A stretch of 9,994 nt of DNA. It comes from a virus (taxonomy: Duplodnaviria; Heunggongvirae; Uroviricota; Caudoviricetes). The DNA is taken from the IMG/VR virus record IMGVR_UViG_2541047778_000017. The stretch is one strand, 5' to 3'. The stretch's first letter is position 1. Every line of letters starts with the position of its first letter. Positions 460 through 7,353 of the stretch are shown piece by piece. The position numbers and the translations under genes are program-made. Under the pieces are notes generated by a model, which was not told where the DNA came from, did no database searches, and saw nothing but the letters and a program-made list of their open reading frames with translations.

Positions 460-633
460 ATGGAAGATCAAAAAGCAACCAAGCCACAGCTTAAGTTCGA
501 CACAATGAAAGCATTCGCAGGTATGGGGGCTGCTGTTGAAGTTCTGATGAAGGCTGCTCCTAATGCGTTCACTCACGCTACTGTCTCTGGTAAAGAGCAG
601 CAGGGTAAGCTTCGTCGTCGCAAAGCAGCATGA
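460..633 (+). CDS. small protein, 57 aa (MEDQKATKPQLKFDTMKAFAGMGAAVEVLMKAAPNAFTHATVSGKEQQGKLRRRKAA), unknown function
   Basis: Not in the ORF track (below its length cut-off). ATG at 460 preceded by GGAG at 450-453 with 6-nt spacing; TGA at 631-633; intrinsic terminator follows within 20 nt. Basic C-terminal tail. Confidence 0.45.
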   Translation: MEDQKATKPQLKFDTMKAFAGMGAAVEVLMKAAPNAFTHATVSGKEQQGKLRRRKAA

Positions 634-651
634 TCATAGCTGGTGCTTTTT

Positions 652-680
652 GAAAACCCGCCTTTAGGCGGGTTTTTTCT
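652..680. terminator. bidirectional rho-independent terminator between convergent transcription units
   Basis: AAAACCCGCC-TTTA-GGCGGGTTTTTT: GC-rich stem flanked by an A-run on the 5' side and a T-run on the 3' side, so it can terminate transcripts from either strand. It sits right after the stops of the 57-aa ORF (plus) and the PrtN-like ORF (minus). Confidence 0.7.
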
Positions 681-962
681 TTAGTGATGTTCTTTGCCCT
701 TCTGTTTGCCTGTTCTGACCTGTTCCCACTCGATACGTCCTTCTTCTCGTCTTTTGTCTATGTATTCCGCAAGATCCTGAATATTGATGCAACGTTTTGC
801 TTTTTGTGATGTGCCGATGCGATATGTTGGAACGGGCAACTTACAAGCGTTTGCTTTTGCTTCTGCTGTGGCTGGACTCATACCAAAGTACTTTTGGCTA
901 ACTGCTGAGAGTTCAATGTTTGAGGTATTGAATTCAGCCATCAGTAAAAACAAGGTGTTCAT
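681..962 (-). CDS. pyocin-activator PrtN-like small DNA-binding protein (93 aa from ATG at 962)
   Basis: N-terminus MNTLFLLMAEF... and the ...KLPVPTYRIGTSQKAKRCINIQDLAEYIDKRR block match my recollection of PrtN-family proteins. Start chosen at ATG 960-962 because GGAG lies 6 nt upstream and the longer track ORF (start 1037) would overlap the upstream gene by 35 nt. Stop TAA at 681-683. Confidence 0.5.
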   Translation of the reverse strand: MNTLFLLMAEFNTSNIELSAVSQKYFGMSPATAEAKANACKLPVPTYRIGTSQKAKRCINIQDLAEYIDKRREEGRIEWEQVRTGKQKGKEHH

Positions 963-4066: not shown

Positions 4067-4496
4067 AAAGCAGTGGCTGTTGTGGTGACCGGTGCTGATC
4101 TCCGGCTTGCGGTTATTTCAGACTCTCACGGGCGTTTAATTGCCCCGCCGAACAGCTCTTTTCCGCAATAGCTGCAATGTCTTTCGCGCATCAGCCTGCG
4201 CATTCACCACAACGCTGAGAGCACTTAGCCAGTTACGGCACCACACTTTGTCGCGGTTCCATAAATGCCCTCATCGTTGCACCCTGGTCTCTTCCCAGGT
4301 GTCAAACCGAACCGCCACGCTGGTTAGGCGTCTTATCAGCATCATCATTGACTTGCACATTCCGGCTACCTGGTTTGTTTGCCCGAGCAAGGAGTGGATT
4401 GTCCCCTTTAACATCCCCAGACCGCTAACGACGCATGTGCCATACGCCGTGTTACAACCAAATTTTGTTAGTACCTTGTTTGTAGGTCTGGAAAGA

Positions 4497-4548
4497 AAGA
4501 TAAAATGAAGTTGCGTATTATGCAAGTGTTTTATTGCGAGATATGCAA
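4497..4548 (-). promoter_or_regulatory. candidate leftward early promoter with two operator-like sites (pL/OL analogue)
   Basis: Two near-identical 15-bp sites, TTGCGTATTATGCAA (4511-4525) and TTGCGAGATATGCAA (4534-4548), resemble TTGCGCGTTAAGCAA in the cI-cro intergenic region. On the minus strand, TTGCAT (-35, complement of 4520-4525), a 17-nt spacer and TATCTT (-10, complement of 4497-4502) would start transcription near 4489 heading toward the yfdP-like operon. Confidence 0.3.
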
Positions 4549-4560
4549 TTTGGTGGGTAA

Positions 4561-4586
4561 TGAAAAGCCACCTTCTGGTGGCTAAT
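4561..4586 (-). terminator. rho-independent terminator downstream of the repressor gene
   Basis: Minus-strand reading AGCCACC-AGAA-GGTGGCT followed by TTTTCA, about 20 nt after the repressor stop at 4605-4607. Confidence 0.55.
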
Positions 4587-4604
4587 TGATGTTGAGGTAG
4601 GGGG

Positions 4605-5297
4605 TTAATTGTGTCGCTTAAGGGTCTGTGACTGACTGATTAAGACCTTTCCAAAGACCATAAACCGGTGTTCGTTTTCGCTGGTAATTCCCCATTCACG
4701 GTAAATCTGGTTATCAGAAATTACCAGTAGTTTGTCAGGTATCATTTGCAGTCGTTTGACATAAATTTTATCATCAAAACCAAACACATAGATACCATCC
4801 CCATCAAACTGATTGATACTGATATCAACGAAGATGAGATCTCCTGGCTCAATGGTTGGACACATACTGTCCCCACGAACGTTGATAACTTTAATGTGAT
4901 TGGCTGGTCGTCCTCCAAACATCGATACAGCATTATCAGTTATGTATTCAATGGCATGAATCACATCAATGACATCACCGCCCTGGATAAGGCCATTTCC
5001 CGCACTGACACTGACATCCAGCATTTCAATACGGAATACATCCTTCACCTGCGCAACATCCTCACCAGTACTGTTTTTACATACAGTATTACTTTTGAAG
5101 TCTGAGGTAAAGAGATCTGCAATATCAACACCTAAGCTCCTGGCAATATTACTCAGGGCTTGTTCAGTGAATTGTTTCTGCTTACCTGTTTCCAGGCGTG
5201 AGATATTCGCCGCATCCACTCCTATTGCTTCAGCGAGATCGGCGATTTTCATGTTCTTCGCCTGGCGAAGTTGTCTGACTCGATTTCCTATGCTCAT
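4605..5297 (-). CDS. phage repressor, cI/LexA-like: N-terminal HTH plus C-terminal S24 autopeptidase domain (230 aa)
   Basis: N-terminal HTH (VRQLRQAKNMKIADLAEAIGVDAANISRLETGKQ) and C-terminal S24 signatures (VRGDSMCPTI with the Ser nucleophile; IYVKRL with the Lys general base). Divergent from a cro-like gene across a 97-bp operator region. Confidence 0.9.
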   Translation of the reverse strand: MSIGNRVRQLRQAKNMKIADLAEAIGVDAANISRLETGKQKQFTEQALSNIARSLGVDIADLFTSDFKSNTVCKNSTGEDVAQVKDVFRIEMLDVSVSAGNGLIQGGDVIDVIHAIEYITDNAVSMFGGRPANHIKVINVRGDSMCPTIEPGDLIFVDISINQFDGDGIYVFGFDDKIYVKRLQMIPDKLLVISDNQIYREWGITSENEHRFMVFGKVLISQSQTLKRHN

Positions 5298-5394
5298 GCG
5301 TTTATTACATTTCTTTATTGCGCGTTAAGCAAATCAACTTGCGCAAAATATTTGCGTGAAATAATATGCTTACCACGCAATATGTGGAGGTTAT
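5298..5394. promoter_or_regulatory. divergent promoter/operator region (OR with pR and pRM analogues)
   Basis: Operator-like sites TTGCGCGTTAAGCAA (5318-5332), palindromic TTGCGCAA (5339-5346) and ATGCTTACCACGCAA (5366-5380, reverse complement TTGCGTGGTAAGCAT). Candidate pR: -35 TTGCGC (5339-5344), 17-nt spacer, -10 TAATAT (5362-5367). Candidate pRM on the minus strand: -35 TTGCTT (complement of 5327-5332), 17-nt spacer, -10 TGTAAT (complement of 5304-5309), ending 6 nt before the cI ATG, which implies a leaderless or near-leaderless cI mRNA. Confidence 0.45.
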
Positions 5395-5655
5395 ATGCAA
5401 TCACCATTACGAAATGTGCGTAAGGCGCACGGATTTACTTTGCAGCATGTTGCTGCGGGTGTTCAGGTTAATCCAGCGACGCTGAGTCGTATTGAAAGAC
5501 TGGAACAAATTCCATCTATCGATCTTGCAGAACGTCTGGCCAATTTTTTTAAGGGTGAAATCAGCGAAATGCAGATTCTTTATCCGGCACGTTTTCAATC
5601 TAGCCAAAACCAGAATGGGTTTAAACCACAGGAACAGGAGGTAAGCCGTGGGTAA
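5395..5655 (+). CDS. Cro-like XRE-family HTH regulator (86 aa)
   Basis: HTH motif FTLQHVAAGVQVNPATLSRIERLEQIPS; GGAGG 4 nt upstream of ATG 5395; divergent from the repressor. Its 3' end overlaps the start of the next gene. Confidence 0.8.
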   Translation: MQSPLRNVRKAHGFTLQHVAAGVQVNPATLSRIERLEQIPSIDLAERLANFFKGEISEMQILYPARFQSSQNQNGFKPQEQEVSRG

Positions 5656-6205
5656 GCATCACTGGAAAGTGGAAAAACAACCTGAGTGGTACGTGAAAGC
5701 TGTCAGAAAAACTATCGCGGCATTGCCTGGGGGTTACGCTGAAGCTGCTGACTGGCTGGATGTAACAGAGAACGCTTTATTCAACCGCCTTCGTGCAGAT
5801 GGCGATCAGATTTTCCCGCTGGGATGGGCAATGATTTTGCAACGTGCTGGTGGAACTCACTTCATTGCTGACGCTGTGGCGCAGTCTGCAAATGGCGTCT
5901 TTGTGTCTCTTCCTGACGTCGAGGATGTGGACAACGCCGATATTAACCAGCGCCTGCTGGAAGTCATCGAACAGATCGGGAGTTACTCAAAGCAGATTCG
6001 TTCGGCAATCGAAGATGGGGTAGTGGAGCCACACGAGCAGACAGCAATTAATGATGAGTTGTATCTGTCAATTTCGAAGCTCCAGGAGCATGCAGCACTG
6101 GTCTACAAAATCTTCTGCGCTCCAGAAAAGAGTAACGCCCGCGAGTGTGCAGCTCCGGGCGTCGTGGCGTCGATTGCTTCTGGTTGTGGAGAAACTAACG
6201 CATGA
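5648..6205 (+). CDS. CII-like phage regulatory protein (phage 186 CII / CP76-type), 185 aa
   Basis: GTG start at 5648 with AGGAGG at 5636-5641 (6-nt spacing), overlapping the cro-like stop at 5653-5655. Position immediately after cro and overall sequence character recall the CP76-type CII family; this assignment is from memory only. Confidence 0.55.
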   Translation: MGKHHWKVEKQPEWYVKAVRKTIAALPGGYAEAADWLDVTENALFNRLRADGDQIFPLGWAMILQRAGGTHFIADAVAQSANGVFVSLPDVEDVDNADINQRLLEVIEQIGSYSKQIRSAIEDGVVEPHEQTAINDELYLSISKLQEHAALVYKIFCAPEKSNARECAAPGVVASIASGCGETNA

Positions 6206-6350
6206 ACAGTTTAACGGCAAATAACCGTTTGTCGCAACAGCTGGTGGTCAGCGTCGCTGAACACCTGTTGTTACGGCATGAATGCAGATTACCAAATCAC
6301 CTGGCTGTAAGTAACCACAGAGAACTTTACCTGACTGTGGGGGGCGAGTT

Positions 6351-6530
6351 GTGCAGGAACTTAACCGCTGGTTTCGTGACGGAAGAGGGCTTTATGTCCA
6401 TGTTATTCGTTGGGAGCCAGAAACACAGCGCGTTATCTATCTTCGCAAAGACTACCCGCATGAGTGCTTTAGTCCTTTGTGGAAATTCAGGCGTGATTTT
6501 GTTGAGTGTGAAGGACCACCAGCATATTGA
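6351..6530 (+). CDS. candidate small protein, 59 aa (VQELNRWFRDGRGLYVHVIRWEPETQRVIYLRKDYPHECFSPLWKFRRDFVECEGPPAY), GTG start
   Basis: Not in the ORF track. Alternate frame inside the long 6202..7353 ORF, bounded by TAA 6312-6314 and TGA 6528-6530. Its composition is protein-like (W, Y, mixed charge), unlike the overlapping long frame. G-rich stretch 6338-6343 could serve as an SD; a LexA-box-like palindrome lies 31 nt upstream. Confidence 0.3.
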   Translation: MQELNRWFRDGRGLYVHVIRWEPETQRVIYLRKDYPHECFSPLWKFRRDFVECEGPPAY

Positions 6531-6807
6531 TTCTGCAATTCCGGGACGTTACACTGCTCAGGCACCTTATAAAGCGGGTGCCGGGCGTGGAAACCCGAAA
6601 TTCAATATAGAGCACAACCGCGCTCATGCGGTTTTTTCGTGTCATGAGCATCGTTACGCCCAAATTATGGTGGGGCGTGCAGGGCCAACTTCGGTTGGGC
6701 CGGGTTCTATGTTGACCGGTATTTCCACCCCTGTACGTCTCACCACCTATATGGTCGTGGAAAGCCTTGGTGGTGAGTTCATTGAATTCAACATAGGGGC
6801 TGTCACC

Positions 6808-7353
6808 ATGACTACTCTCCCAACCCAATCTCACCCTGAAATCACGATTATCAATGGTCGCGTTGTTACCACATCTTTTGCAGTAGCTAATTACTTTACT
6901 AAACGGCATGAGCGGGTTTTAGATAGAATTAGAAACCTCGAATGTTCCGCTGAATTTACTGAACACAATTTTGTGTTAAGTGAATACACCGACGCATCAG
7001 GCCGCAAACTCCCTTGTTACCAAATCACCCGCGACGGTTTTGCGTTTCTTGCCATGGGCTTCACTGGTAAACGTGCTGCCCGGTTCAAAGAGGCATACAT
7101 AAATGCCTTTAACCAGATGGAAAAACTGCTTTCAAAGCCATCCACGCTGAGCGATGCCGCAGATAACGCCAGCGTGCTTTACTCCCACCTGTCGGTAATC
7201 CACAAGGTCTGGCTGCAGCAGCTTTATCCCATGTTGGCAAAAGCCGAATCCCCGCTGGCTGTAAGTCTGTATGACCGCATCAACGACGCGGCGCTACTGG
7301 CCAGTCTCATAAATTTGTCGCTGAACCCTTCAGAGGTAAGGGGGCGCAAATGA
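6808..7353 (+). CDS. Rha-family phage regulatory protein (181 aa from ATG 6808; the frame is open upstream to ATG 6202)
   Basis: MTTLPTQSHPEITIINGRVVTTSFAVANYFTKRHERVLDRIRNLECS...YQITRDGFAFLAMGFTGKRAARFKEAYINAFNQME matches my recollection of the Phage_pRha domain, which is normally N-terminal. AGGGG lies 8 nt upstream of ATG 6808. The 202 in-frame codons upstream are His/Ser/Arg/Gly-rich and poor in Asp/Lys, which argues against their being coding, although the ATG at 6202 overlaps the cII-like stop (ATGA). Confidence 0.65.
   Translation: MTTLPTQSHPEITIINGRVVTTSFAVANYFTKRHERVLDRIRNLECSAEFTEHNFVLSEYTDASGRKLPCYQITRDGFAFLAMGFTGKRAARFKEAYINAFNQMEKLLSKPSTLSDAADNASVLYSHLSVIHKVWLQQLYPMLAKAESPLAVSLYDRINDAALLASLINLSLNPSEVRGRK

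Follow-up and report, generated by a model that had tools for sequence, protein, structure and literature searches.

We analysed a 9,994-bp stretch of Caudoviricetes DNA (IMG/VR record IMGVR_UViG_2541047778_000017), referred to below as the window and numbered from its first letter. The window holds the immunity (early) region of a lambdoid prophage of the mEp460 / SfII / Stx2a_1447 type, and the elements studied here are short palindromes that lie on both sides of its repressor gene, cI. This gene is on the minus strand (4605-5297) and encodes a protein of 230 amino acids that matches the Pfam families HTH_3/HTH_26 (residues 7-64) and Peptidase_S24 (residues 107-218), as well as PHROG 4, transcriptional repressor. 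Divergent from cI, across a gap of 97 bp, lies cro (5395-5655, plus strand), so that the lambdoid arrangement is present; it encodes a small HTH_3 protein (Pfam) of 86 amino acids, with a GGAGG Shine-Dalgarno sequence at 5386-5390. These Pfam and PHROG matches show that an earlier note on this DNA was right about the identities of both genes. The gene for a CII-like protein, CP76/YmfL (ymfL, 5648-6205), adjoins cro. At the other end of cI, a terminator scan detected an intrinsic terminator on the minus strand (4566-4583; AGCCACC-AGAA-GGTGGCT followed by TTTTCAT), and the SfII record annotates a stem-loop at the equivalent position.

Public records differ on where cI starts. Those of mEp460 (L003, 4707-5354) and Stx2a_1447 (L002, 4562-5209) give a protein of 215 amino acids beginning at Met16, while those of SfII and phiSTEC1575 use the start that yields 230 amino acids. 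The short annotation has 15 codons fewer (window 5252-5297 is dropped) and loses helix 1 of the helix-turn-helix (HTH) domain. Since the domain needs this helix, we take 5297 as the correct start. The N-terminal HTH of CI is 434-like and its C-terminal S24 domain is LexA-like; a search of solved structures returned only remote HTH and UmuD matches.

The earlier note had described a 15-bp motif, TTGCG-N5-WGCAA, on either side of the repressor gene, and the four 15-mers it named all stand where it placed them. Two are on the left, directly after the cI terminator, which lies between the cI stop codon and OL2: the promoter-proximal left operator candidate OL1, TTGCGTATTATGCAA (4511-4525), and the second one, OL2, TTGCGAGATATGCAA (4534-4548), the two spaced 23 bp from centre to centre. 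The other two are on the right, in the 97-bp gap between cI and cro: site A, equivalent to OR3 of a lambdoid right operator (OR), TTGCGCGTTAAGCAA (5318-5332), and site C, equivalent to OR1, ATGCTTACCACGCAA (5366-5380), which matches on the minus strand (reverse complement TTGCGTGGTAAGCAT). OL1, OL2 and site A match the pattern exactly, and about 0.8 kb separates OL2 from site A. The same palindrome is thus found at OR and at a second, leftward-control position (OL), as in lambdoid phages. Written as TTGCGN5WGCAW, the pattern occurs 4 times in the window, where chance would give 0.15; none of 200 dinucleotide-preserving shuffles reached this count, and the 10 kb contain no further exact match. 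When one mismatch is allowed there are 6 matches against 2.1 expected, which is not significant on its own, and the two extra ones are both in coding sequence. Because the pattern had been written down after the sites were seen, we relied on tests that are independent of the window.

Conservation of the sites among relatives

We compared the locus with 25 relatives from about 12 enterobacterial genera, with cI mostly 53-95% identical. Phage collections supplied F1055 (83% protein identity of cI), Kp4878-1 and Eeyore (about 70%). Other cI relatives came from one genome per GTDB species and amounted to 24 loci, belonging to Shigella, Citrobacter, Kluyvera, Pseudescherichia, Klebsiella, Buttiauxella, Trabulsiella, Pantoea, Mixta, Rosenbergiella, Dryocola, Proteus, Serratia and Phaseolibacter. 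A site was scored as occupied when TTGC-N7-GCAA was present, with at most one mismatch, at a fixed distance from cI. Site A, centred 28 nt upstream of the cI ATG, was occupied in all 25 loci, and site C, centred 76 nt upstream, in 24 of them. Two further positions on the right, sites B and D (centres 49 and about 126 nt upstream), were occupied in 12 and 17 of the 25, respectively. On the left, 22 of the 25 loci had at least one site, and 18 had at least two, 22-24 bp apart, with centres that typically fall ~61 and ~84 nt beyond the cI stop codon. Copies of the motif numbered 16.6 per kb in the zones on either side of cI and 0.45 per kb over the remainder of these loci, a 37-fold difference (binomial p = 4e-100).

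When 18 non-redundant upstream regions were stacked on the cI ATG, the half-sites of A and C held ~1.9 bits per position, the site centres 0.9-1.0 bits and the spacers between sites 0.5-0.7 bits. This contrast between half-site, centre and spacer is a classic phylogenetic footprint, as read from the aligned sequences.

We also built a symmetrised weight matrix to which neither the window nor its kin of at least 90% identity contributed; its input was 51 unique sites taken from distant relatives. Scored over 9980 positions of the window, this matrix placed the sites at 4511 (21.5 bits), 4534 and 5318 at ranks 1 to 3, the site at 5366 sixth and one at 5416, which is site D, seventh. The intermediate ranks were taken by two matches that we rejected as operators: the fourth (7040-7054) lies inside an ant-like open reading frame (ORF) and was taken as a coding-sequence coincidence, and the fifth (5296-5310, ATGCGTTTATTACAT) overlaps the cI ATG, has an unconserved left half and was read as the -10 block of a promoter discussed below. 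Another candidate, TGGCGCAGTCTGCAA at 5877-5891, lies inside ymfL, occurs in e14 as well and was likewise set aside as a coincidence of coding sequence.

A de novo search gave the same answer. In 22 distant relatives, all 256 four-mers were enumerated as inverted pairs, 0-12 nt apart, within the zones that flank cI, and TTGC-N7-GCAA came first in this unbiased scan (45 inside the zones, 4 outside; p = 5e-44), followed by its own sub-patterns. In the zones of the window itself, it is the sole gapped palindrome with three copies inside and none outside. The repeated palindrome of the earlier note stands; what the note had missed are the family consensus, TTGCG-N5-CGCAA with a centre base pair that is always A/T, and sites B and D.

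The motif follows the DNA-binding part of the repressor. Helix 3 of CI is AANISRLETGKQ in the window, and every motif-bearing locus keeps it as (A/G/S)(N/S)(I/V)SR(L/V)ETGKQK. Where the helix differs, so do the repeats. PhiR26_1, with a cI of 42% identity and SQAAIQKIETGK as helix 3, has its cI flanked by CAACAACC/GGTTGTT-type repeats and has no TTGC-N7-GCAA. HK022, whose cI is 43% identical in the C-terminal part and has another N-terminal region, carries TGAAC-N5-GTTCA on the flanks of cI in place of the motif. The e14 repressor YmfK has an unrelated N-terminus, and the repeats beside its gene are of the GGTACA type; an Acinetobacter homologue with another DNA-binding region lacks the motif and has nothing comparable beside cI. 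The gene ymfL is common to e14, SfII and the window, and e14, with its different repressor, lacks the motif; the motif thus tracks cI and cro and not the CII-like gene. Its co-occurrence with the ANISRLETGKQ helix, and its absence with other helices, is indirect evidence for the predicted binding by CI and Cro and for a putative role in immunity specificity. Cro has PATLSRIERL as helix 3, and in the Pfam HTH_3 register Ser-Arg-Leu-Glu of CI (S33-R34-L35-E36) and Ser-Arg-Ile-Glu of Cro (S31-R32-I33-E34) fall at matching helix-3 positions, which fits common binding sites for the two proteins.

These comparisons also set the window apart from known immunities. The operators differ from those of HK022, 933W and e14, and immunity specificity would differ from each. 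We considered 933W or BAA2326 immunity for the window and rejected both since the published operator sequences differ; e14 (cohE/croE) immunity, hinted at by the ymfL annotation, was rejected as YmfK and YmfT are unrelated in their DNA-binding part and e14 has GGTACA repeats.

Predicted promoters and weaker sites

The earlier note had placed promoters pR and pL over these sites, and conservation argues for both. The predicted pR reads along the plus strand with TTGCGC (5339-5344) as its -35 element, exactly 17 nt before TAATAT (5362-5367) as its -10, and its start would be expected at 5374 or 5375. The combination of TTGCG(C/G), exactly 17 nt and TAnnnT is kept in all 27 loci while the spacer sequence diverges. 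Site B covers this -35 element, and site C spans about -9 to +7 of pR, that is, the end of the -10 and the transcription start. The first two bases of site C are the last two of the -10, which explains why the site begins with AT, not TT, in every relative. The predicted pL, on the minus strand, uses the half-site of OL1 at 4520-4525 as its -35 (TTGCAT, 4525-4520), exactly 17 nt from the -10 TATCTT (4497-4502), with a start expected near 4489-4491. Most of the 22 aligned loci retain a TAnnnT hexamer at this distance of 17 nt, and here too the spacer sequence changes. We therefore regard pR and pL as predicted promoters that are well supported by conservation.

A candidate pRM, from which cI would be transcribed, has the half-site of site A as its -35 (TTGCTT, 5332-5327, minus strand), followed after 17 nt by TGTAAT (5304-5309, minus strand) as its -10; site A extends over this -35 and into the spacer. 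The -10, read as ATTACA on the plus strand, forms a block of 1.9 bits per position in the stack. Only 6 nt separate it from the cI ATG (5297), and a transcript would thus begin with the A of this ATG and be leaderless. In 23 of the 27 loci a TGTAAT or TTAAAT hexamer stands 6 nt ahead of the ATG, and a Shine-Dalgarno sequence before cI is found in none. A pRM that yields a leaderless cI mRNA, as in lambda, is plausible on this pattern.

Sites A and C are clear-cut. Site B, the probable equivalent of OR2 and weak, is TTGCGCAAAATATTT in the window (5339-5353). Relatives carry the full 15-mer in only 12 of 25 cases, and in the window it ranks 25-37 with the weight matrix. Its conserved part is the left one, TTGCGCAA (5339-5346), while the right half fails to match in the window and in roughly one relative out of two. 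Within the left part, ACTTGCGCAA is more strongly conserved (~1.96 bits) than any other block of the intergenic region. As judged from this pattern, site B resembles a weak middle operator and serves at the same time as the predicted -35 of pR.

Site D, GTGCGTAAGGCGCAC (5416-5430), lies inside cro, over codons 8-12. It is degenerate in the clade of the window, although the window copy still ranks 7 of 9980, and is a full match in most relatives (TTGCGnAAnTCGCAA/T). Among the relatives, Leu8 of Cro is always encoded by TTG and Ser11 always by TCG wherever these residues are present, amid synonymous codons that vary for Arg9, Lys10, Leu5 and Leu16. Such fixed codons among varied neighbours point to a constraint at the level of DNA. 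The window clade has lost the outer bases of the site (Val8, Ala11). On the right, the centres of A, B, C and D stand at 5325, 5346, 5373 and 5423, with gaps of 21, 27 and 50 bp.

The window carries a variant of its own in site C. Its centre base (5373) is C, whereas mEp460 and Stx2a_1447 have T and all 51 sites of distant relatives have A or T; this C accounts for the lower, sixth rank of the site. The segment 5340-5400 has an exact match in 0 of 5426 complete Escherichia coli genomes, and 649 records match it with one mismatch. The private T-to-C change could weaken the operator, or it could be a rare variant or an error of sequencing.

We note in addition that in the window clade TTGCG occurs once more within the pR spacer (5352-5356), at 13 nt from the TTGCGCAA block. 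The two form a near-palindrome within 5339-5356, CGCAAA-ATA-TTTGCG, whose half-sites face outward; it is unconserved in distant relatives.

A probable lambda-type switch and alternative explanations

Comparison across relatives lends strong support to the reading of the earlier note that these are repressor operators. The sites are very probably the operators of a lambda-type lysis-lysogeny switch, with CI and Cro as the predicted ligands. CI dimers would bind the 15-bp palindrome (T)TTGCG-N5-CGCAA(A), with an A/T pair at its centre, and Cro, which has Ser-Arg-x-Glu at the same helix positions, would most likely bind the sites of CI. OL1 would lie over the -35 and spacer of pL and OL2 would adjoin it upstream, and pL would read leftward into a leader of ~420 nt and the early left genes. 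CI on site C, together with B, and on OL1 and OL2 would shut pR and pL. Site A would lie over the -35 of a weak promoter that starts the cI mRNA at its own AUG, and its filling by Cro or by excess CI would turn cI off (negative autoregulation). Finally, RecA-stimulated (SOS) cleavage of CI would lift repression. Residues A99, G100, S144 and K181 are invariant in the alignment of relatives, and by analogy with LexA we infer that Ala99-Gly100 is the predicted cleavage site and Ser144/Lys181 the catalytic dyad of the S24 autocleavage domain. CI thus combines an HTH domain with an S24 domain that has the Ala-Gly site and the Ser/Lys pair, as expected of a lambdoid repressor. What the sequences show is the sites, their statistics and conservation, their tie to the recognition helix and the conserved promoter geometry; which protein binds, in what order the sites fill, whether binding is cooperative, whether pRM is activated and where transcription starts is what we infer for this switch.

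Lambda itself has divergent cI and cro genes, a tripartite OR with a weak middle site and a second operator cluster at pL; its CI joins an HTH to an S24-type autocleavage domain with an Ala-Gly site, and its cI mRNA is leaderless, starting at the AUG with no Shine-Dalgarno sequence. The window shares with textbook lambda the divergent genes, probably the tripartite OR, the OL cluster, the make-up of CI and the predicted leaderless cI mRNA. It differs in that lambda sites are 17 bp long and three are at OL (15 bp and two in the window), that rexAB lies between cI and OL of lambda, which are 2.3 kb apart rather than ~0.8 kb, that the Cro fold of lambda is unlike that of the window Cro, and that OR2 of lambda is near -42 of pRM. 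An N gene is not evident in the window, and its absence has been reported for SfII.

Among characterised systems, the nearest is HK022 with its immunity region (GenBank X16093, Oberto et al. 1989), in which 15-bp palindromic operators of the form 5-N5-5 are annotated, three at OR and two at OL. Its CI resembles that of the window in the C-terminal domain (42.7% identity over residues 19-228). Its two OL sites, with a spacing of 24 bp, begin 61 and 85 nt beyond the cI stop codon, close to the centres at 61 and 84 nt in the window family, and its operators overlap the -35 and -10 elements of pL and pR. The window sites at 4511-4548 have this same geometry, with two 15-bp 5-N5-5 sites spaced within the 22-24 bp range and placed ~60 and 85 nt past the cI stop. 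What differs is the operator sequence (TGAAC-N5-GTTCA in HK022, TTGCG-N5-CGCAA in the window family), the N-terminal DNA-binding region, the Cro protein and the OR spacing, which is 24 and 33 bp in HK022 and 21 and 27 bp in the window. Further, HK022 has nun and a nutL-like/put element, while the window family adds a fourth site inside cro.

Phage 933W, a lambdoid, Stx-associated type like that of the window, has 15-bp operators with an A/T centre at five natural sites, three in OR and two in OL (Koudelka lab, PMC3317979). In its half-site, position 2 is mostly G-C, 3 has A-T as consensus, 4 is A-T, 5 is C-G and 6 mostly T-A (PMC3317979). Operator length and centre are alike, but the half-site is unrelated, there is no TTGCG in PMC3317979, and 933W has been characterised experimentally whereas the type of the window is known here from its sequence. 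In the PaaR2/YdaS system of CP-933P (PMC8630535), a bistable switch of lambdoid-like type, four palindromes separate the divergent promoters, the outer ones over pRM and pR. It resembles the window in having four palindromes rather than three. Those of CP-933P are 18 bp long, built on GTTTAGTAA, equally spaced and served by other regulators, in contrast with the unequal spacing of the right-hand sites of the window (21, 27 and 50 bp), one of which is in coding sequence.

Several observations weigh against the switch as we propose it. The N-terminal domain of CI and Cro gave no alignment by BLASTP, so that their sharing of sites draws on the Pfam register and on precedent. A simple sigma-70 scan, at its threshold, calls none of the proposed pR, pL and pRM. 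The candidate pRM hexamer also departs from the usual A at -11 (it has G or T, never A), and on both counts the leaderless cI of the earlier note, although backed by the conserved hexamer-N6-ATG arrangement and the missing Shine-Dalgarno sequence, comes out weaker. The sole call of the scan near OR, a minus-strand promoter made of TCCACA, 16 nt and TATTAT (5388-5361), was rejected because it is unconserved in F1055, Kp4878-1 and Eeyore. In the window itself, B amounts to one half-site, D is degenerate and the centre of C departs from the consensus. Site A, the one nearest to cI, is the best match to the consensus, and site B is centred near -49 of pRM, not near -42 as OR2 of lambda is; for these two reasons a lambda-style ordered occupancy and activation should not be assumed. 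In the literature open to search, subscription-only papers excepted, these operator strings occur in no paper, and we found no prior description of the operators and promoters of this immunity type and no data on binding, footprints or transcription starts.

The same elements might instead be -35 hexamers kept only for RNA polymerase, with the palindrome incidental. The -35 elements of all three proposed promoters are indeed TTGC half-sites (TTGCAT for pL, TTGCGC for pR and TTGCTT for pRM), and at site B the TTGCGCAA block is the most conserved one although its partner half in the 15-mer is not. Yet we regard this explanation as highly improbable, since the GCAA partner exactly 7 nt away is as strongly conserved as TTGC, OL2 and sites C and D coincide with no -35 element, the TTGC-N7-GCAA pair is concentrated in the zones beside cI (45 against 4), and TTGCxx is a poor -35 (3/6) that gives no reason for an invariant non-consensus C. 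Negligible, in our judgement, is the probability that the repeats reflect chance or the composition of AT-rich intergenic DNA. The motif was defined by a reader who had already seen it, and the count with one mismatch is unimpressive, but the exact pattern occurs 4 times against 0.15 expected with no shuffle reaching 4, its positions are conserved across ~12 genera (p about 1e-100), and the independent weight matrix and de novo scan agree; chance is already refuted by the last three of these results.

A different regulator might also bind the motif, be it Cro alone, the CII-like YmfL/CP76, an Ant/Rha-like protein or a host factor, with CI acting elsewhere, a possibility to which we give little credence. 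The CII-like gene does adjoin cro, and lambda CII recognises TTGC repeats. Lambda CII sites are, however, direct repeats (TTGC-N6-TTGC) and not inverted repeats with N7, and the motif follows cI and cro rather than ymfL, as e14 shows. As for host factors, the block CGCAAAATATTTGCG at 5342-5356 loosely recalls a PurR box; we rejected this resemblance because the spacing and centre are wrong for PurR (there is no central CG) and CGCAA..TTGCG is confined to the window clade. No other palindrome is comparably enriched beside cI, and sites set over pL, pR and pRM are the classic layout for CI and Cro, as in HK022.

A possible leader RNA, other RNAs, distribution and significance

The predicted pL leader (4070-4492, minus strand, ~420 nt) contains no convincing ORF, and insertions and deletions among close relatives are not multiples of 3. 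Its first 98 nt (4395-4492) fold with -33.3 kcal/mol (z = -3.9), and the hairpin ACGGCGTATGGCACATGCGTCGT is kept in relatives. Rfam gave no match for the leader, and the window has no twin of it downstream of pR, as a put-like pair would require. The leader may be a cis-acting RNA in a phage group reported to be without N. Another conserved pL-leader block, GCCACCGGCGGCTACTTCGTGGGCGTCCTGCCTGTTCGC when read on the strand opposite pL, is found in the more distant relatives L005, L007, L014, L017 and L019 and in e14 (L009, about 5080-5130). It is present there despite differing repressors and operators, and is absent from the window.

Other RNA features lie farther away. Within the ORF at 6202-7353, Rfam places on the plus strand (6549-6750) a C4 antisense RNA (6663-6750, 82 bits), isrK (6562-6638, 62 bits) and the a1/b1 C4 target (6549-6601). 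This C4/isrK block resembles the P1 immI c4/ant module and lies downstream of the CII-like gene. The ORF is annotated in phage records as one coding sequence for a 383-residue 'antirepressor', and, because the C4 and isrK RNAs lie inside it, its N-terminal part is probably no real coding sequence. At 582-685 (plus strand), weak sub-threshold Rfam matches to rnk leader, RNAI, P9, Leu leader and sroH fall on one short stretch, which is probably a stem-loop or terminator and not a member of those families.

A fuller scenario would join several of these observations: four operators on the right, with D apparently kept inside cro by selection on synonymous codons, B and D decayed in the E. coli/Shigella clade of the window, and the T-to-C change in C. 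If it is true, the decay of B and D, in a clade that includes Stx2a phages, together with the T-to-C change, could leave the switch weakened and easier to induce, or could make the prophage partly operator-constitutive. As a separate point, the structured, apparently non-coding start of the pL leader (4395-4492) could act in cis as RNA. We consider this extended reading rather doubtful.

The immunity type is widespread. The window is 98% identical to mEp460, ~97% identical to each of phiSTEC1575-Stx2k, PhiR63_1, Stx2a_1447 and Stx2a_WGPS2, and 90.6% identical to Shigella phage SfII. The type occurs in serotype-converting SfII and in Stx2a- and Stx2k-converting phages as well. Of 5426 complete E. 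coli genomes, 1043 contain segment 4440-5700 of the window; about one in five of them thus carries this immunity type. In the annotated phage records of this type that we examined, operators are not marked. The operator and promoter map is almost certainly a new, well-supported example of the ordinary lambda/HK022 design with another recognition code, and involves no new principle. The site map, consensus and promoter predictions provide ready probes for electrophoretic mobility shift assays and footprinting. The map would permit the typing of prophages into immunity groups from their sequence alone, and would help to test how Stx2a phages of this type stay silent or become induced.

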